60,219 bases of DNA from an uncultured bacterium (GCA_964511315.1 CAZEFF010000007.1:1-60219), one strand, 5' to 3'. Positions 17,598 to 54,769 are shown, counted from the stretch's first letter. Made by a program: numbers and translations. The notes: generated by a model not told the origin, from the sequence alone.

Positions 17598-17599
17598 TT

Positions 17600-26616: not shown

Positions 26617-26818
26617 ATCTTTCTCCAGGGCCTATTATTTTTACGTTAAAGAAGTTTAATTCTTTACGGCAAAATTATATCATAGACTTTATTCGGGTTA
26701 AAGCTTTGAGCAGGAATAAGTTAGGAAAGCTTAGGGTTAAGCTTTAGGGGGCGCGGGCCGATAATTTGGAAGGCCATTTAAGCATGAAATTAGCCGGCCT
26801 AAGCAGTTGAAAGGGCTT

Positions 26819-30104: not shown

Positions 30105-30809
30105 TTGATCCTTAATGCCGAGATAATCAGCACTATGTCAAAGAATGGTCTCATTCAGCTTTCCATGCACCGGCCCTTAAAAGTCTGTTCGCCAGGATTG
30201 CTCCGCAAAGCTAAAGCGCATTTTAAAAAGTATGACTTTCTTAAGCTCCCCAAATTCTTTTCTGAACATACGCTTTCATTTATAAAAAATACGCTTCCAA
30301 AAGCTTCGTTTGAACATAAGCGGCACAAAGGGATCGCGACCGAGCTTTGCATGAAAACAAATCTGCTGATGGGGATTTTGACTTATCTGGTGAATGATTA
30401 TGAGCTGTTCCGGTGGATCCAAGAGGTTACGGGAAGCAGACCCCTTGGATGCTTTACCGGAAGGGTTTACAGAATGAAACCGGGTGATCATTATGACAGC
30501 TGGCATGACGACTGGCGCTATGGCCGAAAGATTGCGCTGAGCGTTAATTTCAGCGAAGAGATTTATGAGGGCGGCTGCCTCATGTTGAGGCATAAAAAGA
30601 GGCCCAAGCATATTGTCCATGTCACTAATGCAGGATTTGGTGACGCGATTATTTTTCGTTTGGGGGCTGAATTGGAGCATCAGGTTTCCGGTTTGAAAGG
30701 GACCGCGGCAAAAACCGCATACGCGGGATGGTTCCGCAGTTATCCGGATTATTTTAAAAATGTCAAAAAAATAAAAATTATCCCGTCAAAGTTTACCGCA
30801 AAGCGATGA
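30105..30809 (+). CDS. 2-oxoglutarate/Fe(II)-dependent oxygenase (prolyl-hydroxylase-like)
   Basis: HxD (WHDD) ... distal His (EHQV), YEGGCL, terminal GWF; start uncertain (TTG 30105). Confidence 0.75.
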   Translation: MILNAEIISTMSKNGLIQLSMHRPLKVCSPGLLRKAKAHFKKYDFLKLPKFFSEHTLSFIKNTLPKASFEHKRHKGIATELCMKTNLLMGILTYLVNDYELFRWIQEVTGSRPLGCFTGRVYRMKPGDHYDSWHDDWRYGRKIALSVNFSEEIYEGGCLMLRHKKRPKHIVHVTNAGFGDAIIFRLGAELEHQVSGLKGTAAKTAYAGWFRSYPDYFKNVKKIKIIPSKFTAKR

Positions 30810-32074
30810 CTCTTTTTTTGGTTTTTCTCCTCGCGCTGATTCCCCGTGCAATTTATTTATTTTTGTTTACGGATCTAACCATTAATCCAGGTTGGAGTGC
30901 TCATTGGAACTTGGCCACCGGGATTTTGAAATATGGAACTTACGGTTATCACGGAGAACGCGTTACTAATATTGAACCGGGATATTCCTTTTTTCTGGCG
31001 TTGGCGCGGGGCCTATTTCAGGAGCGGTTGACCGGTGTTCTGCTTCTTCAGGTTGTTGTTGCTGCACTTGGCGCGGTAGGGCTCTTCCTTTTAGCTATGG
31101 AGCTCTTTGGCAGCCGTAAGACTGCTTGGATAAGCGCCTCCTTATATGCCTTCTATCCCTATTTAATTGGACAGTCTGTCTCTTTGATTGAAGTGCCCAT
31201 TTTTATGACTTGCCTGATAGGCGCGGTTTATTTTTATGTTAAAGCGGATAAAGAAGCAAAGGAGACTGTTCTCGGAGGTGTTTTAACAGGAATGGCTTTT
31301 GGGGTCACGATCCTCGTTCGGAGTATGGTTTTGCCGGCCGCAGCCGTGTGTTTCTGTTTGTTCGCGATCAAAAGGAAGATGCTAACCTTTGTTTTCTCTT
31401 TACTGGCATTCTTAATTGTGGCGGGGCCATGGTTTTCGCGAAGCCACAGTGTTGACGGTTCCTGGATTCCGCCAAGAGGAGGATGGAATTTTCTACAGGG
31501 TAATTGCCCGTATTCCGATAAAATTATTCCTCAGTATAATCCTGATTTGCTCGATGCTTATGTCTCCGAACTTTTAGAAAAAGAAAGGCCGGATTTAATT
31601 AAAGTAGAAAGAGAAACAGACGCCGCTGAATCCGACCGATTTTTTAAAGAGAAGGCTTTTTCATTTATAAAAGAACATCCGTGGCGGACGGCTTTGCTGA
31701 AATTTAAAAATATTCTGTATTTGTTTTATCCTCGGATTGTTCCATTTAAATCCATGAATGAAAACACGCGGATCCATTTCCTGGGGCCTGAAGAATTTGA
31801 GGTTGAAAATATTCCAAACCGCGGGATTTGGCGGGAATTATCTTATAGTCTCACGTATACGCCTATTTTTTTATTAGGTCTTGGCGGGCTTTATTTAAGG
31901 AGAAAAGAAATTTGGCAAAACTTGGTTTTTTATGCAGTTATGATTAACTTTACGGCCGTTTACGCCCTTTGCTGGCCTGCTACGCGGCTGAGGGTCCCTA
32001 TGGATTTTATTTTCATGCTGTTTGCTGCTTACACATTAAGCGTATGGAACAAAAAAAACTGCCCGGCGGATTGA
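30806..32074 (+). CDS. GT-C fold (ArnT/PMT-like) membrane glycosyltransferase
   Basis: Multiple TMs, IEPGYSFFL loop, YAFYPYLI, RLRVP near the C-terminus. Confidence 0.65.
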   Translation: MTLFLVFLLALIPRAIYLFLFTDLTINPGWSAHWNLATGILKYGTYGYHGERVTNIEPGYSFFLALARGLFQERLTGVLLLQVVVAALGAVGLFLLAMELFGSRKTAWISASLYAFYPYLIGQSVSLIEVPIFMTCLIGAVYFYVKADKEAKETVLGGVLTGMAFGVTILVRSMVLPAAAVCFCLFAIKRKMLTFVFSLLAFLIVAGPWFSRSHSVDGSWIPPRGGWNFLQGNCPYSDKIIPQYNPDLLDAYVSELLEKERPDLIKVERETDAAESDRFFKEKAFSFIKEHPWRTALLKFKNILYLFYPRIVPFKSMNENTRIHFLGPEEFEVENIPNRGIWRELSYSLTYTPIFLLGLGGLYLRRKEIWQNLVFYAVMINFTAVYALCWPATRLRVPMDFIFMLFAAYTLSVWNKKNCPAD

Positions 32075-32760
32075 CCTGCTTTTTCCCTTGTTTTAATGAT
32101 GCCCGCACTATCACGGGGCTTGTTAAGAAGGCTGCGTCCGCGGCTGAAAGGAATGCGCCTGATTTTGAAGTGCTTGTTGTTGATGATGGGAGCAGCGATG
32201 GGAGCCGTGAGATTCTTAGAGCATTAGCTCGGGAGCACGCTTATTTGCGCGTTATTTTTCATGAGAAGAATCTTGGGTATGGCGCCGCTCTGCGCTCGGG
32301 ATTTCGGCATGCTTCAAAAGAATTTATCTTTTATACGGATGGAGACGGACAGTATGACCCGTTAGAACTTGAAAAACTTATTCCGCTCATGACCGGAAAA
32401 GTTGATCTTGTGAATGGGTATAAGTTGACCCGTGAAGATTCCTTGATAAGAATAGTCTTAGGGAATATTTACGCGACGATTGTCCGGAATGTTTTTTCTC
32501 TAACTATTAAAGATCCTGATTGCGACTTCAGGCTCTTTCGACGGGCGGCTTTGCCGGCAGAGCTTAAATGCTCCAGCGGGGCTGTTTGTGTTGAACTCGT
32601 GAAGATGATTCAAAGCGGGGGCGGGGATACCGCGCAATGCCCAGTGAGTCATTTTGGGAGAGAATTTGGGCGGTCTCAGTTTTTTAATTTATATTCAATT
32701 TTCCGCACTTTTCGTGAGCTTGTCGCGCTGAGGAGAAATTTGACGGTGTATGGAGGATAA
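32044..32760 (+). CDS. GT2 glycosyltransferase (polyprenol-phosphate sugar synthase-like)
   Basis: FFPCFND, VVDDGSSDGS, NLGYGAAL, YTDGDGQYD, DPDCDFRL; start moved to ATG 32044. Confidence 0.88.
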   Translation: MEQKKLPGGLTCFFPCFNDARTITGLVKKAASAAERNAPDFEVLVVDDGSSDGSREILRALAREHAYLRVIFHEKNLGYGAALRSGFRHASKEFIFYTDGDGQYDPLELEKLIPLMTGKVDLVNGYKLTREDSLIRIVLGNIYATIVRNVFSLTIKDPDCDFRLFRRAALPAELKCSSGAVCVELVKMIQSGGGDTAQCPVSHFGREFGRSQFFNLYSIFRTFRELVALRRNLTVYGG

Positions 32761-33502
32761 CGAATACCAGGCAATGTATATGTGCGAGGATTCGCATTGG
32801 TGGTATGACGGACTGCGCCGGATATGGAGCCAGTCATTACGGGGCCATGTCCCAGAATGTTCCGGCTTTCGGATTGCGGATATTGGGTGCGGAACTGGGG
32901 GCAATATTGCATCTGCCGTGCGTGAACTATCAGCAAAAATGGTGGGCGTTGACGCGAGTCCTCTAGCAATTTCCCTCGCCTCACGCAGGCCGGAATGCGG
33001 CATGATCGCTCAGGCCAGAGCGGAAAGCTTGCCGTTTCGATCTCAGCTGTTTGACGCCGTGCTTTCAACGGATGTGCTGTATATCCGGGGGATCGATGAA
33101 AAAAAAGCGCTTCGAGAAATGTACAGAATCTTAAGGCCGGGCGGTCTTTTGTTGATCAACTTACCCGCATTTGAATGTTTACGGGGACGGCATGACCAAA
33201 AAGTACATACACAAAAGCGATATGAAAAGACCGCGCTTACGGCTTTATTACATGATTCAGGATTTAATATCGTTAAAATGAGTTACTGGAACTTTTTTCT
33301 TTTTCCGCTGGTTTATCTTCAAAGGAAATGCTCCGTTATTTTTTCCAAAAATAAAACCGCCGCCGCTTCAGATGTTAAGCTGCCGGGTCATTTGATGAAT
33401 CGGTTTTTAAAAAATCTCTTAACGATGGAAAGATTCTTTTTTTTAAAAACAGGACTTCCTTGGGGCAGTTCGATATTTGCTATCGCGCAAAAACCCGCTT
33501 AA
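32750..33502 (+). CDS. Class I SAM-dependent methyltransferase
   Basis: ADIGCGTGG, GVDAS, AESLPF, RILRPGG. Confidence 0.88.
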   Translation: MEDNEYQAMYMCEDSHWWYDGLRRIWSQSLRGHVPECSGFRIADIGCGTGGNIASAVRELSAKMVGVDASPLAISLASRRPECGMIAQARAESLPFRSQLFDAVLSTDVLYIRGIDEKKALREMYRILRPGGLLLINLPAFECLRGRHDQKVHTQKRYEKTALTALLHDSGFNIVKMSYWNFFLFPLVYLQRKCSVIFSKNKTAAASDVKLPGHLMNRFLKNLLTMERFFFLKTGLPWGSSIFAIAQKPA

Positions 33503-34424
33503 TATCTTTTTGCAGTTTTTTCTGGAGCAGCCCAATTTTTTTTAAATCCATTGGATATGAAACTGCCCGGATAGGGATTCGCTGAACAAGTTTAGAAGTA
33601 AAGCGCAGTTGTTGCTGAAGTCGTGCTGAATCCTGCAATACTAAATTGTGGGAAGATTTAATCAGGGCAATAACGCTGTCTTTTGGCTTCAGATTTTTAA
33701 TCCTAATGGAACCGCCCGTTTTGAAGCGGGGCCAGAGTACATAGATTAACCCTACCCGAATGCTTTTTCGGCTCATATCGCCAGGTTTAAGGCGGAAAAT
33801 CAATTTTTTCGCGATAGGGCTCATTTTGCCCGCGGGAACAATGTGTTTAAGAAATTTTTTAGCCGGCGTAGGCCATAGCTTGATTTGCGGTACTCCTGGC
33901 GGTGTCCAAAATGAACCAGACCGCTTTTGAATAGCAAAAATGTCATCTGTTAACAGATCAAATTTTTCCCGAAAAAAACACGCGGCTAATGTCGATTTCC
34001 CATAGCCAGATTCTCCCAGAAACGCGACCGCTTTATCTTCAAACTTGACCGCGGAAGCATGGAAAGCCTCATAGCCGAGCTTAATTAAACTGAAGGATAG
34101 AACATTTGTTTGTAAAAAGATAATGGGAGGGACGTGAGGGGCGGCGGCATTTTGTTTTGAAGGAATTTTCTCATGAAATATAAGGCGGCCGTTTTTTGAA
34201 ACCCAGAAACGCAAGCGGTCAAAAAACCGGATATAAACGCTTCCATCGTCTAGCAGCTGATAGTCAATCGGATGCTCCGAAAATTGCGCTCCCGACTTTA
34301 AAATAAGCTTATGAAAAAAACGGGAGGGAGCCCTTCGGATTGAGATTTGGGGATATTTCGCTTTTACCAGGGGAGCGTTAAGCTTAAGGTCGCTCTTAAC
34401 GGGTAAACCATAAAGTTGATACAA
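33480..34424 (-). CDS. HPr-kinase-like lasso peptide kinase
   Basis: FHASAV (conserved His), Walker A GESGYGKST, LLTDD; immediately downstream of the precursor; TTG start. Confidence 0.82.
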   Translation of the reverse strand: MYQLYGLPVKSDLKLNAPLVKAKYPQISIRRAPSRFFHKLILKSGAQFSEHPIDYQLLDDGSVYIRFFDRLRFWVSKNGRLIFHEKIPSKQNAAAPHVPPIIFLQTNVLSFSLIKLGYEAFHASAVKFEDKAVAFLGESGYGKSTLAACFFREKFDLLTDDIFAIQKRSGSFWTPPGVPQIKLWPTPAKKFLKHIVPAGKMSPIAKKLIFRLKPGDMSRKSIRVGLIYVLWPRFKTGGSIRIKNLKPKDSVIALIKSSHNLVLQDSARLQQQLRFTSKLVQRIPIRAVSYPMDLKKIGLLQKKLQKDIKRVFAR

Positions 34425-34437
34425 GCAAAACGGTGCC

Positions 34438-34590
34438 TTAGGTTGTTCCTGACCGGGTTTTGTTGGCTACCGCGGTACTGCCAAGATCATTTGCCCGAGT
34501 CCGTGTTCCAAGGGTCAGTTTTTTGAATGAACCGTATTTAATCAGGCTAGGCGAATTGTACTTCTTTTTCGAGTTCTTTTTTTCCTTCAT
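34438..34590 (-). CDS. Lasso peptide precursor, 50 aa: MKEKKNSKKKYNSPSLIKYGSFKKLTL / GTRTRANDLGSTAVANKTRSGTT
   Basis: Hand-translated and absent from the ORF track. GGAG 6 nt before ATG; exact YxxPxLxxxGxxxxxT leader; Thr at -2, Gly at +1, Asp at +8; sits between cyclase and kinase. Confidence 0.92.
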   Translation of the reverse strand: MKEKKNSKKKYNSPSLIKYGSFKKLTLGTRTRANDLGSTAVANKTRSGTT

Positions 34591-36445
34591 GAAAAGCTCC
34601 TTGATTGAATTGTTGAAGCATGTAATCGGTAGAGATTAAAAACCAAAGTTCAAAGCGCCAATCTTTATTACCAGCAAGATATTCATCGGCCAGCCGTTTG
34701 ACTCGATCCAAGCTTGCGTATTTTTGCATCATTCCTGAGCGGTTACAAAGAACCTCAGGATTTTCTCGGTTAAGCAGCAAATGAAGCGCTTGGTCAGTTT
34801 CTAAAGTGCAATTCCCTTTATCTTTGCGCGAGACAATACTGTCCGGAACAACACCCTTCATGGCTTCTTTGAGAATGAGTTTCCTTGTGCCGCTTGCCCT
34901 AAGCTCCCAGGGCAGAGAGAGCATGAATTGAATGAGACGGCTGTCAAAGAAGGGGCAGCGCAATTCAATGCCATATAGCCCCCAAGCGCGTTCATCTAGC
35001 TCAAGCTTCATGACTTGATAAGGGCGGGTTACCTCAAAATAAGTTGCCGCTTGGCTGTATGATTTGAATCGCGGGCGCTTATCGGAGCGTAGAACACGGG
35101 ATTTGAAGCCCATTTTATGAATGGTGTTTCGATTTAGCCAGCGGGCGGGAACAGTTCCCGCAAGTCCGCGCCGGAGATTCAAAAGACTTTCAGGGATCAT
35201 TTGGAGAATCGATTCTCTCATGTAATCTAAGGGGTTATCATTGAATTCATCAGAGAATGATTTTGATTTGAGAATGAACTCAGGAATTCTAAAATGCGCG
35301 AGGAGATCGGCCCCAAATCCAAATTCATCCAGCACTTGATCTCCGCCTTCTCCGTTTATCGCGACGCGAATTCCCCGGTTTTGAAGGAATTCATACGGCT
35401 CTAGATTCCGGCTTACGTTAATCATGGGCGCTTCTACATTATTTAGAAATGATCCTAAGCCTGAAATGAAATCACGAGTTTTTCCGAAAAGCGCGTGCAT
35501 GGGAATGCCGGCTGCTTCTGCGACGATGCGCGCGTATTTGCGCTCATCCGCGAGAGGATCATCAGAGTAAAGGTTTACTGCCTCGATTTTCGGCGCGGAG
35601 GATGATTTTTTGAGATGAGCTGCAGCGGTTGAAACGATCGCTGAAGAGTCATGCCCGCCGCTAAGGAAAGCCGCCATATTGGTCCTGGAACGAAGTCTGC
35701 ACTGTACGGCTTTATCAAAAATCCTTTTAAACTGCTCGATGTATTCATTCGGGTTCTTAAACTGCAATTGAGTTTCAAGATCCCACGATGCGTAGCGCTC
35801 AACCTTCAGTTTACCTTCCTTTAGAGTAAGACAATGGGAAGGCGCTAGGCGGTTAACTTTGTCAAAAAAGGTCCGTGTATGGTCTTCGTCTTTAAAGTTT
35901 CTGAATGAAAGAAAAGATAGAATCATTTCATCGTCAAAAGAGGGTGTGCCGCCCAAGACTTTGAGAAGGGGTTTTATTTCTGAGGCGAAATAAAAATTAT
36001 GGCCATCCCAAATATAATTAAAAGGTTTGAGACCGACTCGGTCGCGCCCCGCAAAAAGCAGATTTTCCTCCTGATCCCAAAGGGCAAAAGCAAATTCGCC
36101 GATTAGATGCTTAAGGCAATCTTTGCCCCAGAGTTTGTAGGCGTGAATAAAAACATCGGTGTCAGGTGCCGAGATAAGAGCAGGGAAGTGAATAAGCAAA
36201 TCTTCACGATTATCGATCCGGCCGTCCCAGACGAGTTTAAACCGATCCTTCATTAGTGAAGTGACAGGGGCTTCATTTTCTGACTCAGGGGTGGTTTTTA
36301 ATAGGCATGAGCCTAAAGCGATTTTATTTTCAGTCCAGAAGGCTTTGCCGTCAGGCCCGCGGTGAATCATGCTTTCAATCATGGATTCTATAACAGGAAT
36401 TTCAATCGAAGAATGGGAACGATAAATGCCAGCGATGCCGCTCAT
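34547..36445 (-). CDS. Lasso cyclase (asparagine-synthetase-like), copy 2
   Basis: MSGIAG (catalytic Cys2 of AsnB replaced), SGGHDSS PP-loop, GEGGDQ, CPFFDSRL; AGGAGGT RBS. Confidence 0.88.
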   Translation of the reverse strand: MSGIAGIYRSHSSIEIPVIESMIESMIHRGPDGKAFWTENKIALGSCLLKTTPESENEAPVTSLMKDRFKLVWDGRIDNREDLLIHFPALISAPDTDVFIHAYKLWGKDCLKHLIGEFAFALWDQEENLLFAGRDRVGLKPFNYIWDGHNFYFASEIKPLLKVLGGTPSFDDEMILSFLSFRNFKDEDHTRTFFDKVNRLAPSHCLTLKEGKLKVERYASWDLETQLQFKNPNEYIEQFKRIFDKAVQCRLRSRTNMAAFLSGGHDSSAIVSTAAAHLKKSSSAPKIEAVNLYSDDPLADERKYARIVAEAAGIPMHALFGKTRDFISGLGSFLNNVEAPMINVSRNLEPYEFLQNRGIRVAINGEGGDQVLDEFGFGADLLAHFRIPEFILKSKSFSDEFNDNPLDYMRESILQMIPESLLNLRRGLAGTVPARWLNRNTIHKMGFKSRVLRSDKRPRFKSYSQAATYFEVTRPYQVMKLELDERAWGLYGIELRCPFFDSRLIQFMLSLPWELRASGTRKLILKEAMKGVVPDSIVSRKDKGNCTLETDQALHLLLNRENPEVLCNRSGMMQKYASLDRVKRLADEYLAGNKDWRFELWFLISTDYMLQQFNQGAFHEGKKELEKEVQFA

Positions 36446-36482
36446 GAAATACCTCCTGAATACGTTGATTGATTAGAGTTAA

Positions 36483-36511
36483 ATTATATCGTCCGCTATA
36501 GTTAAAGTCAT
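36483..36511 (-). promoter_or_regulatory. Candidate internal sigma70 promoter for cyclase 2 - precursor - kinase
   Basis: On the minus strand: ATGACT (36511-36506), 17 nt, TATAAT (36488-36483), then AGGAGGT before ATG 36445. Confidence 0.5.
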
Positions 36512-38235
36512 TAAGAAAAACGGTTTCCCCAATGAAGTTCAAGCCAGTTGGCTAGACGAACTAAACGCCATAGGAGAGGGTAGTTATGAAACCGGAGTTG
36601 AGGGTTTAAAAGCTGCTTTTTTAATACCTCATAATCCACATAATCATAAATTAAGCGCTTTGAATTGGATAAATATTGGGCAATCACGGGCAACTCGAGT
36701 TTTATTCGCGCCGCGCGGTCTTTGAAAGGAATATAAGCGCGTTCATCATCCTTGATCCTCGTGGGGATTGGCATGATAGAGGCAAGGGCTTGCTGGATGA
36801 AATTTTTCCTGTAACCGCCTTCCATCTTTATTTCGACGGGAATAGATAAGAAAAATTCAATCAATGGAAGGTCCAAAAAGGGATGACGGATACCCATCCC
36901 CTGTGTTTGAGCACCCTCTGCCATTTGGGTTAGATTTATTGGGATGATGGGTTCAAAAAGCGTATGAAATGTTTCGTTCTGCGACAACTTTTTAAAGGGG
37001 CGGAGACGCGTAGGCGGAAGCGGAGCCATTTGTTTTCTAAATTCGGGACGGAGCCAGAGCCGATGATTGATCCGGTTTTGGCGGATTAATTTTCTGATCC
37101 AATAAGGTGTTTTTTCCCGCAGCGTTTCCATGAAAAGCATTGTTTTTACCGAGTTCCCGGAAATGTTCATGCATTCAGCGAGACGTTCACATTCGGATGA
37201 AAATTTTTTTAATTTAAAACCCAAAAGAAGGTCTTCCAAATATCCAAATTCCATTAAATTGCTGTATTCATTAGCCCCATATCCGGTTAAAACCGTTTGG
37301 CAGCCTTTGTCAGCCAATCTTTTGAGAAGCAGAGGAACCGTCAGAAAGGCATCGTAATGCGGAGTGTCGGTAGGCTCTAAATAGACTTCAAATATATTTT
37401 GATGTTCAGAATAATAGTCGATGACATCGAGGGATGGATCAAAGCGTTTCATGAATGCATCCAAAGAAGCTTTGTCTTCTTCCAAAAAACCCTCCGGAAT
37501 GATGCAAACTGAATTTAAAGCGGGCAGGCGCGTATCCTTTTGGCGAAGGGTGTGAGCCATTGAGCCGATTTGAGTTGAGTCCAGACCCCCGCTAAAGAGA
37601 AGGCCTGCCGGCGAATTCCCCTTTATCCGATTGCGAACTGATCTTTCAAATAGCCGGTAAAACTCATCAAGATATTGCTGCTTATTCGGATAAATTTCGA
37701 TCTTGTTTGTATTTGGCGCCCAAAATCGGGTTAGATGAGATTCGCCGTTCACTTGGAATGTGATCGTGTGGGCAGGCGGGACTTGTTTGATGCCCTGAAA
37801 GAATGTGGACTCGTAGTCTAAAAATTCACCCATGAAAAATTGACTGAGCATGGCGGTATTCGGTTTTTTAGAAAGAGAAGATTCTTTGAAAATCTGTTTG
37901 ATGCTGGAGGAAAAGATAGTTTTTTCGGAGTCTTGATAATAAAAGAGCGGTTTGACTCCCAAAGGATCACGGGTAAGAAGCAGCTGGTTGTTTTTTCCGT
38001 CCCAAACAGCTATGGCAAAATCGCCTTGAAGGTGAGATGCGAAAGAAGCTCCCCAAATTTTAAACGCGGTAAGAACGGCTTCCTGATCGTTAGTTGAAGC
38101 TGGGAAGTTTTGGGATTTAAAAATTTTATCGAGTTCTTCGCGGTTATCGATATAGCCATTTAATGAAACGATAATGTCCTGATTTGAAGCTGGAAAAGGC
38201 TTCTCAAAATAAAATGAGCCTTCGAAATTATTCAT
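36511..38235 (-). CDS. Lasso cyclase-like asparagine-synthetase homolog, copy 1
   Basis: No N-terminal Cys; RDPLGVKPLFY, SGGLDST, TGYGANE (D->N), HPFLDLPL. Confidence 0.85.
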   Translation of the reverse strand: MNNFEGSFYFEKPFPASNQDIIVSLNGYIDNREELDKIFKSQNFPASTNDQEAVLTAFKIWGASFASHLQGDFAIAVWDGKNNQLLLTRDPLGVKPLFYYQDSEKTIFSSSIKQIFKESSLSKKPNTAMLSQFFMGEFLDYESTFFQGIKQVPPAHTITFQVNGESHLTRFWAPNTNKIEIYPNKQQYLDEFYRLFERSVRNRIKGNSPAGLLFSGGLDSTQIGSMAHTLRQKDTRLPALNSVCIIPEGFLEEDKASLDAFMKRFDPSLDVIDYYSEHQNIFEVYLEPTDTPHYDAFLTVPLLLKRLADKGCQTVLTGYGANEYSNLMEFGYLEDLLLGFKLKKFSSECERLAECMNISGNSVKTMLFMETLREKTPYWIRKLIRQNRINHRLWLRPEFRKQMAPLPPTRLRPFKKLSQNETFHTLFEPIIPINLTQMAEGAQTQGMGIRHPFLDLPLIEFFLSIPVEIKMEGGYRKNFIQQALASIMPIPTRIKDDERAYIPFKDRAARIKLELPVIAQYLSNSKRLIYDYVDYEVLKKQLLNPQLRFHNYPLLWRLVRLANWLELHWGNRFS

Positions 38236-38660
38236 GACCAGCTGTTTGGGGAGGGCGATAAAACCGAGTAGGCGGCCGATTCGTCATCGATTTCCAGCTG
38301 AATTCCGTCAATCTCAAGCCAGGAATGGGCGCGTAAACCATTATTTTGTCTCACGACGCCCACTCTGAGCGTGGGGGCCTTGCCAAGCTGGCAGAATAGG
38401 CTTCCTAACGCTAAAGTGCGCCGCAGGCATGAAGGCTTCCAGCCTAAACGCCGGTCAACAGCTTCTATGAGACTGATTAGCCTTGTCCGCTTTAGGTTTT
38501 GAAGGGAGGAAAGAAAGAAGGATGGTTTTGACGCAGGTGTCAGACTTTGAAGGCGTTTAAGGATTGCGCTAGATGAGGCTAACCGGATCGAGATATCCGC
38601 CCATATAAGGGAGATCATGGAAACAACAATGGGGTACAGCTCTTCTTTTTTAACCCTCAT
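38232..38660 (-). CDS. Lasso leader peptidase B2 (transglutaminase-like)
   Basis: SCLRRTLAL...RVGV...AHSWLE (Cys/His catalytic pair); start at ATG 38660 preferred, ORF track gives 38687. Confidence 0.88.
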   Translation of the reverse strand: MRVKKEELYPIVVSMISLIWADISIRLASSSAILKRLQSLTPASKPSFFLSSLQNLKRTRLISLIEAVDRRLGWKPSCLRRTLALGSLFCQLGKAPTLRVGVVRQNNGLRAHSWLEIDGIQLEIDDESAAYSVLSPSPNSWS

Positions 38661-38982
38661 GGACCTGAATGAGGCCGTTTTTTTCAAGGTTTGTTATGAA
38701 CTTTAAAAGATCTTCGCGGCAAGTTTTCGGATCAACATCATAATGCTTAAGCAGGTAGTCGGCAATTTTCCCAATCTGCTTTTCCTTTTGCATAATATTC
38801 CAAGTCGCTGTTCCCGTCTCGTCCAAACCAAAGTAAATTCCCGTTTCGATATTCAACAGGACAGCTTCGCCCTGCATTTCACGAAAGAGTATTTGGTCGG
38901 AAAAGGTAATTTTGGAAGATGGGCTTATCGCAGTCATGGAACGAGTATACGGGATTTTATTTTTTACATCAAGGTTTGCCAT
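38650..38982 (-). CDS. PqqD-family RiPP recognition element (lasso B1)
   Basis: EAVLLNIETGIYFGLDETG..TW...YDVD...DLLKFITNLEKNGLI; true start may be ATG 38937. Confidence 0.9.
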   Translation of the reverse strand: MANLDVKNKIPYTRSMTAISPSSKITFSDQILFREMQGEAVLLNIETGIYFGLDETGTATWNIMQKEKQIGKIADYLLKHYDVDPKTCREDLLKFITNLEKNGLIQVHEG

Positions 38983-39037
38983 TCAAGCAGATTGGTGATC
39001 AAAAATTTGTTGTGAAGACTCGATCTTGCGTCTGAAT

Positions 39038-41152
39038 CTATTCGACAGCCATTGAAAGGCCTGAAAATGATAGATGATTATAAAATGAGATGCTTTTAAG
39101 AAGGGCGCTTTTGTAACCGTACCAAATGTCGAAGTTTCGGGCGCCATAAGTCGCATCTTTTTGAAAAAGCTGGGGCAAGCGTTCAATCCAATCGGAAACT
39201 TTTTGCGGGTCACGCCCAAGCTTTTCCCGTAATTTCCAGCCAACGCCCCAATAAAAGTTTTTGCGGTATTTATCCGGGATTCTTTGTTCCGCCTGTTTAA
39301 TTTCATTGATGCGGTCAGAGTAAACATAAATGCTGCCGTATGAATGGTCCAATAAAGAGCTTCCGATGCCTCTGTAATACCAACATTTTTCTTCATCGCT
39401 AAGATTTATAGAAAGGTCGCGAGCTTTTAAAGCTTCTTCGCCGGGAGGAAAGCTTGATCGAGCAACTTTTCCTAGTCCCCAAGCGGCCCAATGCCGAGAA
39501 GCGGGTGATAATTTATTTAAAAAGTCCTGATTTTTTTCGAATTCATCAAACCAGTATCCTTCGAAAAATGTTAAGAAACCTTTGTAGAAATAGGGCCGGT
39601 ATTGAGCCGGAAACCGGCCGTCTTGATTTAAAAGATCTTTCAGGGTGTGCTTTTCCGAGCTTAAGTAATAAAATGCAGAGAATTCGCGCGCTATGAAAGG
39701 CCGGTAATCTTCTGGGATAGTCTCGAATGAATCGGGTAGCCCAAGATGAACATTATTTTCCCACTTGGTTTGGCGAAGTAAAGACCAGAAAAAAATGCGC
39801 CTGTCTCTGGGCGTGAAATAAGAGGCTAGTTTACTGATTTGAGGATATAGATCCTTTGAAGCGTCTAAAAGCTGGAGCCAATCAATTCCCAGTTGGGCAT
39901 AGGAGTAGCCCTTGTATCGAAAACCTTGGCCGAGGGGGGAATTGAAATATAGAGGAGATGGGGCGATCAAACTTAAGGCAACTAGCGACAAAATTAAAAA
40001 TTTTGGAATTCGAGCATTGCCCAATGCGATTCCTAGAAGGATAAAACCAAAAAAATAAATAGGGGTATAGTATCGAAATGTAATCGCGTAGTAATATTTT
40101 TCAGGTATGTCCATTCCGCTCATAGCGTATATGGCGATGAAAACGACGGGGTAGATTAAAAAAAACAAGAGTTTTTGAAAAAATGATTTTTTAATAAAAG
40201 GGCGCTGGATTTTACCTGCTAAAAAAATCCCAATTGCCGTGACGCATAAAATGAAATAGCCGTAGGCTCCAGGAATTCGCAAAAAATGATCCCTTTGCAG
40301 GAATGAAAAGGACCTTGGCAGTGAAAAGAAAATTAACCTTAAAAACCGTTTTAGCATAATAAATACTGAGCACGAAGCGTCATGAAAGAGGAAGGCGCCT
40401 AAAAACTTTAAGCCTTGGTAAGGGTGAATGAGATTGCTAATGTACCAAGGCATCAGCCCGATTACAAAAGCCAATAAAAACAGGAAAGTGCTTTTTGAGA
40501 AAAAATTCTGGGGGCGGACAGCGATCCAAACAATCAGACAAGTTAAGCATGTGATTCCGGTTCCATAAAAAAACCAACAGCCAAATCCGCTTAAAACACC
40601 GAAGATTAGAAGATTGGTGGTCTTCCGGTGTTTCGTGAATAAATAGGCGTAAAAAAAAGATAAAATGCCAATGCTGAAAAGTAGGGCTTCGGAGTGTCCT
40701 GATTGCACCAGAAGGTAATGGGATATCACAATCGGAGGGCAAAAGATGAAGAAAAAAGCGGTCCAAATTGATGCCCGGTCCCCGAAATAACGTTTTACAA
40801 AAAATGAGGAAGTTAATATCGTTGCTATTGAAATTAAGAAAGTAGGGATTTTAAGTGCGAGCAGATTTTGTCCCAACAAAAGAAAGAAGGGAATAATGGC
40901 AAGTCCTAGCACTAAAGACTCGCCGGAGTAAAAATCTAGTTGAAAATTCCAAAACGGACAAGGAGTTCCGCGGATAATTTCCCGTGCGATGGTTCCCATG
41001 GAGAGGTCTTCTTTCCAGGATACGCTTTCAATGGATGTTAAGAGGATTAAAACTCTTGAAATAATAAAAACTGCCAATAAAACAACCAATAGGATGTTAG
41101 TCTTATTAATGGGGGGATGGTATTTGGTAGCGGCGGCGCGATTGATTGGCAT
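39038..41152 (-). CDS. GT-C-fold membrane protein with C-terminal helical repeat domain (paralog, SWxE type)
   Basis: VSWKEDLSMG, FQLDFYSGES, SGHSEA, FRYYTP, YKGYSY, FYWGVGW. Confidence 0.7.
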   Translation of the reverse strand: MPINRAAATKYHPPINKTNILLVVLLAVFIISRVLILLTSIESVSWKEDLSMGTIAREIIRGTPCPFWNFQLDFYSGESLVLGLAIIPFFLLLGQNLLALKIPTFLISIATILTSSFFVKRYFGDRASIWTAFFFIFCPPIVISHYLLVQSGHSEALLFSIGILSFFYAYLFTKHRKTTNLLIFGVLSGFGCWFFYGTGITCLTCLIVWIAVRPQNFFSKSTFLFLLAFVIGLMPWYISNLIHPYQGLKFLGAFLFHDASCSVFIMLKRFLRLIFFSLPRSFSFLQRDHFLRIPGAYGYFILCVTAIGIFLAGKIQRPFIKKSFFQKLLFFLIYPVVFIAIYAMSGMDIPEKYYYAITFRYYTPIYFFGFILLGIALGNARIPKFLILSLVALSLIAPSPLYFNSPLGQGFRYKGYSYAQLGIDWLQLLDASKDLYPQISKLASYFTPRDRRIFFWSLLRQTKWENNVHLGLPDSFETIPEDYRPFIAREFSAFYYLSSEKHTLKDLLNQDGRFPAQYRPYFYKGFLTFFEGYWFDEFEKNQDFLNKLSPASRHWAAWGLGKVARSSFPPGEEALKARDLSINLSDEEKCWYYRGIGSSLLDHSYGSIYVYSDRINEIKQAEQRIPDKYRKNFYWGVGWKLREKLGRDPQKVSDWIERLPQLFQKDATYGARNFDIWYGYKSALLKSISFYNHLSFSGLSMAVE

Positions 41153-41187
41153 TAGATATATATTTTCTCCAGATCTGATTTCCTGGG

Positions 41188-42882
41188 TTAATTTTTTCTT
41201 AGTTCATATTCAAACGACGGCTTACCATAGTCTTCGGCAAAGGCTTTTAGACCATTGAGGCCATAAATCTTCATATTCGAGGGAAAAGTTTCAATCCAAT
41301 CGAGTCCGCGCTTAAGATCTTCACGGTGAATTGCCCAGACTGCTGAGCCAAGCCCTCGGTAAAAAGGGGGGTATTCTTCAGGTGTGAGATTTTTAATTAC
41401 TTTCTGAACCTGACGGTTAAATAAAGTATTGGAGTCCCAAATAACGCGAAGCTGCGCTAATGCGAGGTTTTCAGCCTTGGATTTTGAGCTGGGCGGGTGA
41501 ATCCATTCGCTGTGATAAAGATTAGCGTATAAGTTTTTACTGTCTGCACTCGCCATGCCCCAAAGTAGAAAATAGGCATTCTCCGGATTCCGTTTTGAAA
41601 GCGCACGTGCCAAATCATCATTGGTTTTTACCGCAGGTGAAAAAGTGTGGACCCACTGTGTTCCGACGCGGTAATAGGAATATCCTTTATATTGCTGCGC
41701 TCGGCCGATGGGTTCCTTAAATAGAAGGGATGACTGGCCTAAAAATCCAATCAATAGGCAAAAAATAAGTATTAGGCGGTAAGCCGAAGAGAGCAAAATT
41801 GCCGCCAGGAGTAAGCTAATGAATTGTAGGGGCGCTAGGTACCTGTACCCAATATAGCCAATATCCGCAGCGATATCAAAATAGGACAGTGCGAACATGA
41901 TGACAAAAACTATGGGGAAAATAAGGAGCGGTAGGAGCTTAGCACTTCGGCCCTGCTTAGCGGCGAGGAAAATGATCGGGATATAAGCGATGCAGAAATA
42001 AATCCAAGAGCATATTTTTTCATGAATCCCGAAAGCGGGAAAAAAAGAGAAAGAGTTTGGGAGGTGAAGGAGTAATAGTTTGACAGCTTTTTTTGAGAGA
42101 TAAGCGAGAGAACTAAGGTTTTCAGCGGTTTGCGAAAAATTTGTTAAAGTGAAAGCAAGCCCCTCCATCCGGTAATAAGAAATGTAACTGAACCATGGAG
42201 TGAGCCCGAACACAAGGCCCGCGAAAAAAACAAGAAAAGCGCGGCTGAAAAATGATTTTCTGTCCAAAATCAGCCAGCTAACCATGCAAGTAAGGGTCAT
42301 CATGATATTTTGGTTGAAGAACCAGAAGCCGAATCCAGACAGTACGCCAAATAAAAAAAGATGGGAATTTTTTTTTGCTCCAAACAAGTAGAGATAAAAG
42401 AAATAGAGGCTTCCGAGACTGAAAGCTAAGGCTTCCGCGTGTCCGCTCAAGCCTGCCAAAGAAAACTGAACAAAAGATGGCGGTGCAAAAATTAAAAGCA
42501 GGGCTCCCGCAATTGCTGCCCTCCGGCTGAAATGATTCAGAAGAAAAAAGAAGCTGATAATGAATGTGATTATCGCGAAAATGAGTGATGGGATCTTGAC
42601 AGCTAAAAGCGTCGGCCCAAGCAGCTTCACAAAGGGAACTGCCAGGGCGCCTAAAACGATGGATTCTCCTCCGTATGGATCCATCTGATAATGCCAGAAG
42701 GGAAGGCGGGGGCCTTCAATCCAATCTTTCGCGATAACGCCAAGATCGAGTTCGTCATAATGAGACACTCTTTCAACAGCGGTGAAAACTGGAAGAAGCC
42801 GTGAAAGTGTGAATAATAAAAGGAGCCCTCCAAAAATATAAAAAAGAGGCACTGATTTTTTGGGTTCTGCGTTTGTCTTCAT
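41188..42882 (-). CDS. GT-C-fold membrane protein (paralog, HYDE type)
   Basis: ERVSHYDELDLG, YQMDPYGGES, SGHAEA, GYRYLAP, YKGYSY, FYRGLG; start at ATG 42882 (ATGA overlap). Confidence 0.7.
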   Translation of the reverse strand: MKTNAEPKKSVPLFYIFGGLLLLFTLSRLLPVFTAVERVSHYDELDLGVIAKDWIEGPRLPFWHYQMDPYGGESIVLGALAVPFVKLLGPTLLAVKIPSLIFAIITFIISFFFLLNHFSRRAAIAGALLLIFAPPSFVQFSLAGLSGHAEALAFSLGSLYFFYLYLFGAKKNSHLFLFGVLSGFGFWFFNQNIMMTLTCMVSWLILDRKSFFSRAFLVFFAGLVFGLTPWFSYISYYRMEGLAFTLTNFSQTAENLSSLAYLSKKAVKLLLLHLPNSFSFFPAFGIHEKICSWIYFCIAYIPIIFLAAKQGRSAKLLPLLIFPIVFVIMFALSYFDIAADIGYIGYRYLAPLQFISLLLAAILLSSAYRLILIFCLLIGFLGQSSLLFKEPIGRAQQYKGYSYYRVGTQWVHTFSPAVKTNDDLARALSKRNPENAYFLLWGMASADSKNLYANLYHSEWIHPPSSKSKAENLALAQLRVIWDSNTLFNRQVQKVIKNLTPEEYPPFYRGLGSAVWAIHREDLKRGLDWIETFPSNMKIYGLNGLKAFAEDYGKPSFEYELRKN

Positions 42883-43874
42883 GAGGTTTTGATTTGAAAT
42901 AATCGGCAAAAAGCGTGATACGCGGTTTTCGCGGCAATAACCCAAGGGTGGAGAAAGATCCATGCCCAGTAGCCGGTCTTAGAAGAGATGCCTCGATGAA
43001 TTTCGAGTTCAAGCGGAGAGGGGGCTAGTTTTTCGCGAAGCAGCCGTAATTTGCCTTGAAACCTCGGATACCCAAGCCATGTGAAAAAATAGCTCACCTT
43101 TGGCTGGGGAGCTTCGGTCACTAGACGTTTTAAAAATGAAAACAAGATTTTTCTTCCCGGGGATTTGGGGGTCAGTTCCAAAAGAAAGTCTTCAGGGAGT
43201 TTAGACAGTCCATTTTGAATAGCATAAGAAAGACCGTGGAATAGAAAAGTTTCGAGTTTTAATGATTGTATCTTTTGGGCAATCCTTGTCCAATCTATCA
43301 ATCGACTTTCTTTTTCTAAAAAAACGTTAAGATCCCGGACGAAAGTTGAAGAAAGAACGCCCCTATGGGCGGCCGTGTAAGCTGTGAGATAAATAAACTC
43401 ATCTTCGGGATGCAGCAATTGTATCGGGGCCCCCCGAAAAGGGTGACGGATCGAATTCTTCCAAATGCCGGCGGTCTCTTTAGAGTTTATGAAATACCAG
43501 AAATCCCAAATGATGTCGAGATTGATGCTACGGTCGGCATTTACATAAGTTAATCCCTCATCTGGTTCACGTATCAATCCCTTTTTTTCAAAAAAAGCCA
43601 TAACTTTTCGAATGTCTTTTGATTGTATAAGAAGATCCATGTCTGCCATAGAGCGCATTCCAGCGGAAGGATAAGCCCGGATTAAAAGGCTTGCGCCTTT
43701 GAGGGGGATTATCGGAATTTCAGCTTCATTCAGTTCCCGGGATAACTGGGCAAGATATTCAAGCTGAAAATGATTTCTCTTTGTGGTTTTTTCGAACTGA
43801 TTGAGAAAAAGATCAAAAGCCTCAATGCTGTTACTATCGGCTAAGGGCTGATTCGCGGAAGAAGAGGCTGTCAT
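42879..43874 (-). CDS. Nucleotidyltransferase (NTP_transf_5-like, lasso-cluster type)
   Basis: IPLKGASL...YP...RSMADMDLLI; first gene of the minus-strand block. Confidence 0.82.
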   Translation of the reverse strand: MTASSSANQPLADSNSIEAFDLFLNQFEKTTKRNHFQLEYLAQLSRELNEAEIPIIPLKGASLLIRAYPSAGMRSMADMDLLIQSKDIRKVMAFFEKKGLIREPDEGLTYVNADRSINLDIIWDFWYFINSKETAGIWKNSIRHPFRGAPIQLLHPEDEFIYLTAYTAAHRGVLSSTFVRDLNVFLEKESRLIDWTRIAQKIQSLKLETFLFHGLSYAIQNGLSKLPEDFLLELTPKSPGRKILFSFLKRLVTEAPQPKVSYFFTWLGYPRFQGKLRLLREKLAPSPLELEIHRGISSKTGYWAWIFLHPWVIAAKTAYHAFCRLFQIKTS

Positions 43875-43995: not shown

Positions 43996-45444
43996 ATGAA
44001 ATTGCCGGCGCTTAACAGAGATAGCTGGTTTTTTTTAATCGGAGCCGCGGTTTTTACCCTTCTTTATTTCTTGTTTTATCCTTCAATCTATTCTTTTCGC
44101 GATGAGGCGAGTTATCTTTCGATGGCAACTTTGCTGAAATCGGGAAGGTTTTTTATTGGCGGATATGATATCCCATTTCAGTCTTGGGTAGAATCCAGGG
44201 GGCATCGTGCCTTTGACTACCCCATTGGGATGCCTCTCTTTCTCCTTCCTTTTATATATGCGGGCTGGCAGGCAGGTTTTGGGGGGGTGCTGCTTTGCCA
44301 TCTTGCGGGTGCCTTATATTTTGATAGGCTCTTGAAGGTTTTTAAGCTGAATCAGCCCTTTCTTTTCATGATTTATCTCTTTTACCCGGCGTCGGTATTT
44401 TATTCCCGGACCCTTATGAGTGATATCCCAGCCGCTGTCTGTTTTTTAGCGGGTGTTTATTATTACTATACAAATGACCGTTTGCTTAACTGGAAGATGG
44501 GCCTTTTTTTCGGGCTTAGCATTTTGCTGCGGCCAAGCGGATTGATTTATGAATTGCCGTTTCTCGCGGTGGGATTTTTTAGAAACGTGAAAAGGGACAA
44601 AACAGCTGCCGGTCTTTTTGCTGCGGCTTTCACGTGCCCGCTGGCGATATTGTTCGCGGCTCAATATTTTTTTTACGGGGCCCCGTTTGTGCCCGCGCAT
44701 GTGCTTCAATTCTCTCAGTTCAGTAATTTTTCCATCCATTATTTCTTGAGAAATGCGAAGCACTATCTGCCCGCGCTTATTTTGTCTTATCCTTTTATGC
44801 TTTTCGCGCCGTTAAAAGTTTCCGTAACGAAAAAAACTGAAATGCTTAGCGCTGTCTGTGTGGGGCTTGTTTTTTTTAGTCTTTATTCATTTCATGATCA
44901 ATTTCAGACGCCGTTGCAAACATGGATTTTAGGCGTGCGTTTTTTGTTGCCTGCCGTCGCTCTTTTGCTGCTTATGTACGCGGAAGTGCTGAATTGTGCT
45001 TTTGGTTTTTTAAAGCAGGAGCAGCGGATTTTATTTTTTTTGGTTTTGATCTTCGGATTGATTTGTTCCGGCTTTTATATTCATAAGCGGCACCAATTAG
45101 TTCTTCAAGATCAGTTGGCCATGAAGAAAGCCATTTATGAGGTGACGCCCGAGAATGCTATTCTGCTATACGACTTAAATGCGGCTGAACTTATGCAGGC
45201 ATCCTGGGGAAGACGGCAATATGTTGATTGGAGAATTTGGGGTAAAGATATGACGTCTTTTCTCGAAAGCGCAGATTTTAATCGGGGTGTTTTTGTTGTT
45301 AAGCGGGATGGTATGCCGGGAGATTTTAGTTTGGAATGGATGTCTGATAGTGATATCGATAGAATAAGAAAACGGTATCAAGTGAGACAAACCGCGAAAC
45401 AAGGCGGCGTGGAGATTTTTCAGTTTTATGAACCAAATCGTTAA
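43996..45444 (+). CDS. GT-C-fold membrane glycosyltransferase
   Basis: SFRDEASY acidic loop, YPIGMP, many TMs, GVRFLLP. Confidence 0.65.
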   Translation: MKLPALNRDSWFFLIGAAVFTLLYFLFYPSIYSFRDEASYLSMATLLKSGRFFIGGYDIPFQSWVESRGHRAFDYPIGMPLFLLPFIYAGWQAGFGGVLLCHLAGALYFDRLLKVFKLNQPFLFMIYLFYPASVFYSRTLMSDIPAAVCFLAGVYYYYTNDRLLNWKMGLFFGLSILLRPSGLIYELPFLAVGFFRNVKRDKTAAGLFAAAFTCPLAILFAAQYFFYGAPFVPAHVLQFSQFSNFSIHYFLRNAKHYLPALILSYPFMLFAPLKVSVTKKTEMLSAVCVGLVFFSLYSFHDQFQTPLQTWILGVRFLLPAVALLLLMYAEVLNCAFGFLKQEQRILFFLVLIFGLICSGFYIHKRHQLVLQDQLAMKKAIYEVTPENAILLYDLNAAELMQASWGRRQYVDWRIWGKDMTSFLESADFNRGVFVVKRDGMPGDFSLEWMSDSDIDRIRKRYQVRQTAKQGGVEIFQFYEPNR

Positions 45445-47482: not shown

Positions 47483-47491
47483 AGGAGAAAT

Positions 47492-54492: not shown

Positions 54493-54769
54493 CCCCGTTC
54501 GAGACAAATTTATGTACTATGTTTACGTGATACAAAGCGTGAAAGATAACAAGTGGTATACAGGAGTTACAGTTGATTTACGGAACCGATTTAAACAACA
54601 CCAGGCGGGTGAAGTGTCGTCGACGAAAAGCCGAGGTCCTTTCAAGTTGATCTACTACGAAGCGAGCATTGATCGAGAAGACGCCTATGCCCGAGAGCTG
54701 TATTTGAAATCTGGGTTAGGGAAACGGTATCTTAAGAAACGTTTAAATCGGTTCCTGTCTCAAACGGGG
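54493..54769 (+). mobile_element. 277-bp GIY-YIG cassette 1 bounded by terminal inverted repeats
   Basis: CCCCGTTCGAGACA (54493-506) / TGTCTCAAACGGGG (54756-769), 13/14 complementary; flanked by direct repeat CGAAG. Confidence 0.75.

Follow-up and report, generated by a model that had tools for sequence, protein, structure and literature searches.

A kinase and NTP_transf_5 lasso peptide cluster with GT-C genes beside Wza-Wzc in an uncultured diderm lineage

What would membrane glycosyltransferases (GTs) of the GT-C fold do in an operon for a lasso peptide? The question is raised by a 60,219-nt stretch of DNA from an uncultured bacterium (GCA_964511315.1 CAZEFF010000007.1:1-60219). The whole stretch is called the window here, and coordinates follow its numbering. 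A run of nine minus-strand genes (33480-43874), transcribed from high to low coordinates, encodes a nucleotidyltransferase (NTase)-fold enzyme, two GT-Cs, a PqqD-like RiPP recognition element (RRE; RiPP, peptide that is ribosomally synthesized and then post-translationally modified), the leader peptidase B2, the cyclase paralogues C1 and C2, the precursor A and an HprK-like kinase. The original prediction, made from the sequence alone, had named the genes in this order, and all of them were confirmed by profile searches. The data are best explained by a merger, in one uncultured diderm lineage, of a kinase and NTP_transf_5 lasso cluster with a polyprenyl-phosphate-sugar/GT-C module beside the polysaccharide export genes Wza-Wzc. 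This composite locus suggests a new sugar-decorated peptide.

Genes in the window were identified by listing open reading frames (ORFs) and by Pfam and NCBIfam profile searches. The Pfam scans covered only the main long ORFs, i.e. the candidate genes. Since searches of the PDB with the GT-C and NTase sequences gave no useful match, predicted structures were needed. AlphaFold2 (AF2) models of a 704-amino-acid GT-C and of the NTase were compared with PDB structures using Foldseek. Related loci were recovered by homologue searches and genomic-context look-ups, together with a genome scan and a metagenome scan. Gene identities, folds, catalytic motifs, conserved synteny and gene coupling were established at this level.

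Judged from its genes, the run is a complete split-B lasso cluster, with a precursor, an RRE, a B2 peptidase and cyclases with PP-loops. The genes overlap or lie no more than 65 nt apart, which fits a single operon. In a promoter and terminator scan of the operon, the counts were close to those expected from shuffling; the one exception was a promoter-like site upstream of the NTase gene. The leader of the precursor ends in ...FKKLTL and is followed by a core of 23 residues, GTRTRANDLGSTAVANKTRSGTT. The junction (...KKLT-L/G1...D8) has Thr at position -2, Gly at position 1 and Asp at position 8, and a ring between G1 and D8 is predicted. The tail, as translated, is cationic and rich in Ser and Thr, in keeping with the original prediction of a Ser/Thr-rich lasso peptide; R3, R5, K17 and R19 are the basic residues of the core, and its sole Asp is the ring residue. 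The precursor ORF was kept at the same position in seven loci and is therefore not a chance ORF. No second precursor gene was found in the window, where no ORF other than A had a matching leader motif.

The precursors of the clade share a leader ending in ...KYG[STD]FKK[LV]T and a core of the form G-x-R-x-R-x-N-D...NKTRS with a Ser/Thr/Gly/Ala-rich end. Their C-terminal residues (T, G, A, G, G, G and A in seven precursors) are variable, as they are in more distant relatives. A conserved C-terminal Ser was not found in the clade, and Ser or Thr is present just upstream of the C-terminus. Since the C-terminus is not conserved, the phosphate acceptor is not a C-terminal Ser. The tail motif NKTRS, invariant in the seven clade precursors, contains an N-glycosylation sequon (N-K-T). 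This candidate was dropped, as distant relatives have P/x-x-T-[KR] without the Asn. The conserved tail element is therefore T/S-[KR], which more likely serves as a plug or a kinase site.

Both cyclases match lass_lactam_cya below its strict cut-off of 525 bits. The PP-loop reads SGGLDS in C1 and SGGHDS in C2, and SGGxDS was kept in all orthologues. C2 begins with MSG and so lacks the Cys nucleophile of a glutaminase. Two cyclase paralogues with intact PP-loops were present throughout the GT-C-associated clade, and two cyclase genes were also seen in a few distant loci (L020, L026, L048). Most precursor orthologues have a single acidic core residue. For this reason C1 may serve as a partner subunit, or its target may be a different carboxylate.

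The kinase and the NTase place the cluster, as originally proposed, with those of the paeninodin and pseudomycoidin kind. Kinase residues H122, K143, D160 and D161, invariant among 17 homologues, form the H-K-D-D motif described for lasso kinases (PMC9266682). A score of 38.6 bits against a cut-off of 200 excludes the kinase from Haft's HprK-related kinase A system (TIGR04352). In the NTase, G60, D78, D80 and D120, which include the catalytic Asp residues, are invariant among 20 orthologues. The best PDB matches of its AF2 model (predicted local distance difference test, pLDDT, 88) were MenT1, ANT(2'')-Ia, LnuA and FKRP, the last with a probability of 0.99. The model thus has a Pol-beta-type fold, like ANT, MenT and FKRP, and is not of the LicC/GlmU type. 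The LicA/LicC-like logic of the original prediction was not borne out by this fold. FKRP moves a phospho-alcohol from a CDP-alcohol. The sole PF00483 gene of the window (54845-55558) belongs not to the lasso operon but to the sugar-nucleotide part of the locus. PsmN, the corresponding enzyme of pseudomycoidin biosynthesis, was reported to have an ANT(2'')-like fold and to be required for the addition of a hexose to phospho-Ser; the product that depends on this enzyme is a free hexosyl-phospho-peptide (PMC6993621).

The two GT-Cs of the operon share 26-34% identity and common invariant motifs with three GT-Cs encoded in the flanking operon (45428-51495), so that the paralogy claimed at the outset was upheld. 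In a phylogenetic tree the GT-Cs formed four orthogroups, with the genes at 39038-41152 (lasso operon) and 49474-51495 (flanking operon) both in orthogroup IV. The AF2 model of the 704-amino-acid orthogroup IV protein (pLDDT 79; predicted template modelling score, pTM, 0.80) had high-probability Foldseek matches to GT-Cs only: ArnT (5f15, E = 1.3e-4), ALG12, AftB, AglB/STT3, DPY19, EmbB and PglB. ArnT, ALG12, AftB and AglB matched with a probability of 1.00. The motif Q71-x-D73-x-Y75-x-G77-x-S79 in the first loop was invariant in nine aligned paralogues and orthologues. The modelled protein is thus a true GT-C by predicted fold, with an acidic residue (D73) in the first periplasmic loop. Neither Pfam nor NCBIfam has a model specific to the family, which gives only weak PMT_2 matches. 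Known GT-Cs have their active site at the periplasmic face and use lipid-linked sugar donors. A candidate supplier of such a donor is encoded in the window by the GT2 gene, whose NCBIfam matches rank ArnC (5e-25) before PpgS and Dol-P hexose transferase, all far under the family cut-offs. It is probably a polyprenyl-phosphate-sugar synthase. No small flippase of the GtrA or ArnE/F type was recognised among the scanned window ORFs of at least 90 amino acids; the only small multi-pass protein recognised was VanZ-like (52497-53045).

The linkage of lasso and glycan genes proved to be conserved. The composite locus was found on at least 10 independent metagenomic contigs from different samples, all from one uncultured lineage, counted as the window, L001/L002, L003/L005/L006, L007, L008/L011, L009, L010, L064, L065 and L004. 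Kinase identity to the window ranged from 63% down to 34%. The genome scan added a contig of a metagenome-assembled genome (L011) identical to L008, and the metagenome scan with clade-specific kinase motifs gave one further close relative only, on a 3.9-kb contig. In the common layout, genes for a type II secretion system (T2SS), Wza-Wzc and an ATP-binding cassette (ABC) pair of the ABC-2 type are followed by a 2-oxoglutarate (2OG) oxygenase, a short GT-C, the GT2 and a methyltransferase (MT), which are convergent with the lasso operon. The lasso operon holds kinase, A, C2, C1, B2, PqqD, variable GT-C, 2OG, SGNH and MT genes, and the NTase. Divergent from the NTase are the gene for a 482-amino-acid membrane protein and two to three GT-C genes. 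A response-regulator gene stands beside GspG in L005, L007 and L009 and is missing in the window and in L010.

Coupling of genes was found at two places. GT-C orthogroup III directly follows the NTase in eight of the ten loci. In the window its start codon (ATG at 42882) and the stop codon of the NTase share the sequence ATGA, and this 4-nt overlap recurs in L001, L007, L008, L009 and L065, i.e. in six loci including the window. The 2OG oxygenase and the 422-amino-acid GT-C likewise share a 4-nt start/stop overlap. Furthermore, gene families move between the operons: GT-C IV belongs to the lasso operon of the window and of L001 but is confined to the flanking operon in L003, a second 2OG copy lies within the lasso operon in L001 and L007, and the lasso operon of L001 also contains an SGNH/AlgX-like gene and a methyltransferase gene. 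Since the same families alternate between the lasso operon and the flanking operon, the locus looks like a single functional cluster rather than a chance neighbourhood.

The 2OG oxygenase is probably a peptide tailoring enzyme, to judge from the contexts of its orthologues. In L012, L035 and L036, which are lasso loci of distant phyla without GT-C, the gene that comes directly after the kinase is such an orthologue (40% identity); in the Nitrospirales locus L025, also without GT-C, the orthologue lies two genes downstream of the kinase, after the NTase.

The locus had been described as free of exporters. In the window this holds: tblastn with the ABC-2 proteins of the relatives gave nothing better than E = 0.3, no ORF contained LSGGQ, and the Pfam scans of the main long ORFs detected no ABC_tran domain. 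A dedicated exporter of the PadeD/PsmD type was not found in the 60-kb window. An isopeptidase was also not found, the same Pfam scans returning no peptidase S9 domain. The absence of an exporter is not a feature of the architecture, because in all five relatives that cover the interval between Wzc and 2OG (L005 at 14466-16095, L007, L008, L009, L010) this interval holds an ABC-2 pair, ATPase and permease, which is transcribed divergently and lies four to five genes away from the kinase. The missing transporter is specific to the window, which has lost or relocated the pair.

More distant members of the precursor family were recovered from Vicinamibacterales, Gemmatimonadales, Nitrospirales, Methylomirabilota and Desulfobaccales. 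They share the leader KKxYxxPxLxxYGxhxxLTx, ring closure at D8 and the T/S-[KR] element of the tail. They carry the kinase, often the NTase, and no GT-C as determined by searches with a hidden Markov model (HMM). A Wzc-like gene was present within a few kb in seven of 11 genome-derived loci of at least 14 kb, and also in the metagenome loci L035 and L036 and in a JGI contig with a different gene order. The loci within a few kb of Wzc/Wza-like genes in Vicinamibacterales and Gemmatimonadales were L012, L013, L016, L017, L021, L022, L024, L035 and L036; these cases come from few independent lineages only. PEP-CTERM-like exopolysaccharide (EPS) loci of Halioglobus (L027, L028, L031, L032) have a related HprK-like kinase, likewise under the TIGR04352 cut-off, beside Wza/Wzc and have no cyclase. 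The Wza/Wzc locus that the original prediction had seen beside the lasso run was confirmed by its domains (26807-30042). Recurrent adjacency to Wzc is hard to ascribe to chance and supports some functional tie between the kinase/lasso family and polysaccharide export. The Gemmatimonadales locus L021 has an McjD-type exporter, which argues that its peptide at least is secreted.

From these data we infer, for all chemical steps, for the acceptor of the GT-Cs and for the final location of the product, a pathway in which we have moderate confidence. The RRE would bind the 50-residue precursor, the HprK-like kinase would phosphorylate a Ser or Thr of the tail other than a C-terminal Ser, B2 would cleave after ...KKLTL, and the cyclase pair would close the G1-D8 macrolactam. 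The NTase-fold enzyme could then modify the phosphate further, comparable to PsmN in pseudomycoidin, and the prolyl 4-hydroxylase (P4H)-like 2OG oxygenase and the methyltransferase would add further marks, i.e. hydroxylation or methylation. The modified peptide would cross the inner membrane, in the relatives by the ABC-2 pair and in the genome of the window by a transporter encoded elsewhere or by another route. With polyprenyl-phosphate-sugar made by the GT2, the GT-Cs, working at the periplasmic face, would attach sugars to the Ser/Thr-rich tail or lengthen a glycan carried by it. A bolder version makes lasso peptide and glycan one molecule: the exported, phosphorylated and NTase-activated peptide would serve as acceptor or primer for several GT-Cs, and a heavily glycosylated lasso glycopeptide or peptide-capped polymer would be passed to Wzc/Wza. 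We regard this as a tentative possibility.

Glycosylation of the peptide has to be weighed against an unlikely alternative in which the two gene sets share a place and not a chemistry. The GT-C, GT2, SGNH and Wza-Wzc genes would then serve an envelope glycan or the O-glycosylation of secreted proteins, e.g. a giant Ig-repeat protein encoded in the window or T2SS substrates. The lasso peptide would be an independent secreted RiPP of the same island, perhaps co-regulated or with a signal role, and inherited vertically. Several observations weigh against glycosylation of the peptide, and some of them favour this alternative. A full HMM search with the GT-C family that has an all-alpha C-terminal domain (alignment A4) returned 2716 representative clusters at E <= 1e-3 and 598 at E <= 1e-30. 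(A first, word-indexed search had given only four relatives, a limitation of the word index.) The 598 clusters, compared with about 20-30 kinase/NTase relatives found by different search methods, far exceed the clade. The family thus has a life of its own beyond the lasso clade, mostly with no known lasso link, and for most of its members a function independent of any lasso peptide is probable. For a core of 23 residues, a set of five to seven GT-C paralogues is large, and no GT-C lies inside the lasso operons of L003/L005 and L010. L004 (3457-5889) has the NTase, GT-C III, 2OG, the 482-amino-acid gene and GT-C I/II, and no lasso genes were seen in its 10 kb. Its NTP_transf_5 gene is intact and its GT-C III is apparently split into two ORFs (415 and 145 amino acids), a pattern that could reflect loss or relocation of the lasso genes or an assembly error. 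Because the GT-C active site is periplasmic, an export step must separate the cytoplasmic kinase and NTase from the GT-C steps, and the window has no transporter to carry the peptide there. The ABC-2 pair of the relatives and the McjD-type exporter in Gemmatimonadales are also what ordinary secreted lasso peptides have. Finally, since all close relatives come from one lineage, part of the synteny may reflect common descent. What co-location alone explains poorly is the ATGA overlap of NTase and GT-C genes in six loci, the start/stop overlap of 2OG and GT-C, the GT-C, 2OG, SGNH and MT genes within the lasso operon of differing loci, and the same precursor family beside Wzc/Wza in at least three other lineages with differing gene orders.

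The model of the original prediction, in which the NTase nucleotide-activates the phospho-peptide, a ligation joins it to a lipid-linked glycan (or the reverse), and Wzc/Wza display a RiPP-glycan conjugate at the surface, appears improbable to us. A kinase and an NTase-fold enzyme could yield a phosphodiester activated with a nucleoside monophosphate, FKRP is among the fold matches of the NTase, Wza-Wzc is co-directional with 2OG-GT-C-GT2-MT at a distance of 62 nt, and the adjacency to Wzc/Wza recurs in other phyla. Yet the NTase is not LicC-like, the relatives have ABC transporters, and no Wzx, Wzy or priming phosphoglycosyl transferase was matched in the Pfam scans of the window ORFs, from which the locus may continue past 60219. 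To our knowledge GT-C enzymes move sugars, not peptides. In mechanistic terms, sugar transfer to a peptide after its export is the simpler route, compared with ligating a nucleotide-activated peptide to a lipid-linked glycan, because GT-Cs are expected, by analogy with solved GT-C structures, to act in the periplasm with polyprenyl-phosphate-sugar donors; the pseudomycoidin precedent for the NTase, a free hexosyl-phospho-peptide, also differs from a ligated product (PMC6993621). Surface display through Wza/Wzc is pure conjecture. Even less probable, in our judgement, is a role in self-protection, in which GT2 and GT-C would act like ArnC and ArnT, masking anionic lipid A, lipopolysaccharide or EPS against the organism's own cationic lasso peptide and replacing immunity by an ABC exporter. 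Such a role would suit a core with four basic residues whose sole Asp is consumed by the ring, the ArnC match of the GT2, the weak ArnT match of the 422-amino-acid GT-C, ArnT as the best structural match of the 704-amino-acid GT-C, and the lack of an ABC exporter in the window. It is at odds with Arn matches that are all far under the family cut-offs and with the lack of visible genes for Ara4N (4-amino-4-deoxy-L-arabinose) synthesis (ArnA, ArnB, ArnD) and for ArnE/F. Immunity would hardly call for as many as five to seven GT-C paralogues that have large repeat domains, and the translational coupling of NTase and GT-C would be left unexplained. Peptide glycosylation in the periplasm accommodates this coupling and is the reading we keep.

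Table 1. Features of the lasso operon and of the flanking glycan locus in the window.
Feature	Coordinates	Strand	Evidence and remarks
Wza (outer membrane polysaccharide export protein, OPX)	26807-28048	+	Poly_export and SLBB domains
Wzc (polysaccharide co-polymerase, PCP-2a; bacterial tyrosine kinase, BY-kinase)	28048-30042	+	Wzz, GNVR, AAA_31; TIGR01007 (eps_fam) over cut-off
2OG-Fe(II) oxygenase, P4H-like	30105-30809	+	PF13640
Short GT-C, 422 aa	30806-32074	+	PMT_2 6.6e-9; weak ArnT match; 49-62% identity in relatives
GT2, ArnC/PpgS/Dol-P-hexose transferase-like	31969-32760	+	PF00535 4e-26; ArnC 5e-25
S-adenosylmethionine (SAM) methyltransferase, convergent with kinase gene	32750-33502	+	Methyltransf_11 1e-18; same position in L005, L007, L008, L009
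HprK-like peptide kinase	33480-34424	-	Hpr_kinase_C 6e-4, TIGR04352 6.6e-10, both under cut-off
Precursor A, 50 aa	34438-34590	-	MKEKKNSKKKYNSPSLIKYGSFKKLTL/GTRTRANDLGSTAVANKTRSGTT; NCBIfam lasso_leader_L3 24 bits, cut-off 19
C2 lasso cyclase paralogue	34547-36445	-	Asn_synthase; lass_lactam_cya 2.2e-108
C1 lasso cyclase paralogue, N-terminally shortened	36511-38235	-	Asn_synthase and GATase_7; lass_lactam_cya 1.9e-73
B2 leader peptidase, transglutaminase-like	38232-38687	-	PF13471 Transglut_core3 2e-14; NCBIfam lasso_biosyn_B2 53 bits, cut-off 33
B1/RRE, PqqD-like leader-binding protein	38650-38982	-	PF05402 9e-19; NCBIfam lasso_PqqD_Bac 73.9 bits
GT-C, orthogroup IV, 704 aa, all-alpha C-terminal repeat domain	39038-41152	-	PMT_2 1.6e-4; AF2 fold
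GT-C, orthogroup III	41188-42882	-	PMT_2 7e-6; ORF extends to 42963, true start probably 42882
NTP_transf_5 (PsmN-like) NTase-fold enzyme, first operon gene	42879-43874	-	PF14907 6e-33
482-aa multi-pass membrane protein, LA_3751/LA_3752-like putative glycosyltransferase	43996-45444	+	NF047440 1.6e-13, under cut-off
Three tandem GT-C paralogues (orthogroups I, II, IV)	45428-51495	+	PMT_2 7.5e-8, 7e-7, 4e-6
SGNH/AlgX-like esterase or acyltransferase, N-terminal hydrophobic segment	51386-52471	+	Lipase_GDSL_2 and ALGX

Since only 62 nt separate Wzc and 2OG in the window, Wza, Wzc, 2OG, GT-C, GT2 and MT form one co-directional array. On the other side of the operon, the 482-amino-acid gene, divergent from the NTase and encoding hydrophobic segments, kept its position in L001, L003/L005, L004, L007, L008 and L064. 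Beyond the GT-C trio and the SGNH gene follow VanZ-like, Wzz-like, sugar-nucleotide and GT4 genes. Two small ORFs with GIY-YIG nuclease domains (54512-54784, 55534-55827) flank a sugar-1-phosphate nucleotidyltransferase gene in this glycan locus. Several of the best NCBIfam matches of the genes at 43996-45444, 51386-52471 and 30806-32074, all under cut-off, were to families named after Leptospira (LA_3751/LA_3752 and the LA_2486/LA_2490 SGNH esterases); judging by these matches, Leptospira may have a comparable GT-C/SGNH gene set. Further upstream of Wza-Wzc lie a complete T2SS gene set, F-type ATPase-like genes and the gene for a giant Ig-like-repeat protein. The F-type ATPase-like genes (13069-18040; b/delta-like fusion, alpha, gamma, beta) are directly upstream of, and co-directional with, the genes for an MshEN-domain protein and the T2SS (GspE, GspF, pseudopilins, GspK, PilM/N-like, GspM, GspG), an unusual setting for ATP synthase subunits. 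The repeat protein (5-11728; an ORF of more than 3907 amino acids that continues past the window start) has Kre9/KNH-like Ig-like repeats. It is probably a giant surface or secreted protein and could be an alternative GT-C acceptor.

Tailoring of lasso peptides by kinase and NTase (PMC6993621, PMC9266682) and glycosylation by a GT2 (PMC11912497) are already known. Only two ways of glycosylating a lasso peptide are on record: pseudomycoidin receives its hexosyl-phosphate through PsmN, and the GT2 IgtG uses UDP-glucose. Within the searchable literature, we found no report of a GT-C in a lasso or other RiPP cluster, none of lasso clusters embedded in Wza-Wzc loci and none that links lasso peptides to EPS. 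If the GT-Cs act on the peptide, RiPP tailoring would extend to the periplasm and lasso peptides would be tied to the biology of envelope glycans rather than to antibiosis, which could explain why a widespread kinase-type lasso family often adjoins Wzc/Wza. If peptide and glycan are moreover one molecule, this would be the first case in which GT-Cs tailor a RiPP in the periplasm and the first structural, non-antibiotic role of a lasso peptide in the envelope; on this reading, the recurrent adjacency of the lasso family to Wzc in Acidobacteriota and Gemmatimonadota would point to a general connection of lasso peptides with EPS. Should the link be regulatory or protective only, the coupled gene pairs NTase/GT-C and 2OG/GT-C would still offer experimental handles.

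The locus shares parts with several known systems. Of the Wzx/Wzy-dependent Wza-Wzc pathway, it has the OPX protein and the PCP-2a tyrosine autokinase, whereas Wzx, Wzy and the initiating transferase were not found in the scanned ORFs. The kinase-type lasso clusters known from Vicinamibacterales, Gemmatimonadales, Nitrospirales and Methylomirabilota (L012-L026, L035, L036) resemble the window in the precursor family, the kinase, often the NTase and 2OG oxygenase, and often Wzc. Unlike the window, they have no GT-C and usually one cyclase, and some have an McjD-type ABC exporter.

The pseudomycoidin (psm) and paeninodin (pade) clusters of Bacillus and Paenibacillus resemble the window in the split B1/B2, the Asn-synthetase-like cyclase and the HprK-like kinase with its H-K-D-D motif, and psm also in having an NTP_transf_5 enzyme whose fold is ANT(2'')-like and which is required to add the hexose to the phosphate (PMC6993621, PMC9266682). 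Their precursors have a conserved C-terminal Ser, whereas those of the window clade end in T, G or A. The window further differs in its two cyclase paralogues, the lack of a PadeD/PsmD-type exporter, the GT-C genes inside the operon, the surrounding GT2, 2OG, MT and SGNH genes, the diderm host and the Wza-Wzc setting. In the davasin cluster of Streptomyces, the cluster-encoded membrane GT2 IgtG iteratively glycosylates the mature lasso peptide on Ser with UDP-glucose; homologues of IgtG were reported to be absent from other lasso clusters, IgtG-like GTs occur in graspetide clusters, and GT-Cs are not mentioned (PMC11912497). IgtG is a fusion of GT2 and deacetylase that uses a nucleotide-sugar donor, in contrast to the window enzymes, whose GT-C fold implies polyprenyl-phosphate-sugar donors and a periplasmic active site.

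The GT2 of the window, a putative polyprenyl-phosphate-sugar synthase beside GT-Cs, recalls the arrangement in ArnC/ArnT, in GtrB/GtrA/GT-C, for which the three-component concept was described (PMC11127046), and in protein O-mannosylation by Ppm1/Pmt. Compared with these systems, the window has no recognised flippase gene, it has five to seven GT-Cs with a family-specific all-alpha C-terminal domain, and its genes are start/stop-coupled to RiPP tailoring genes.

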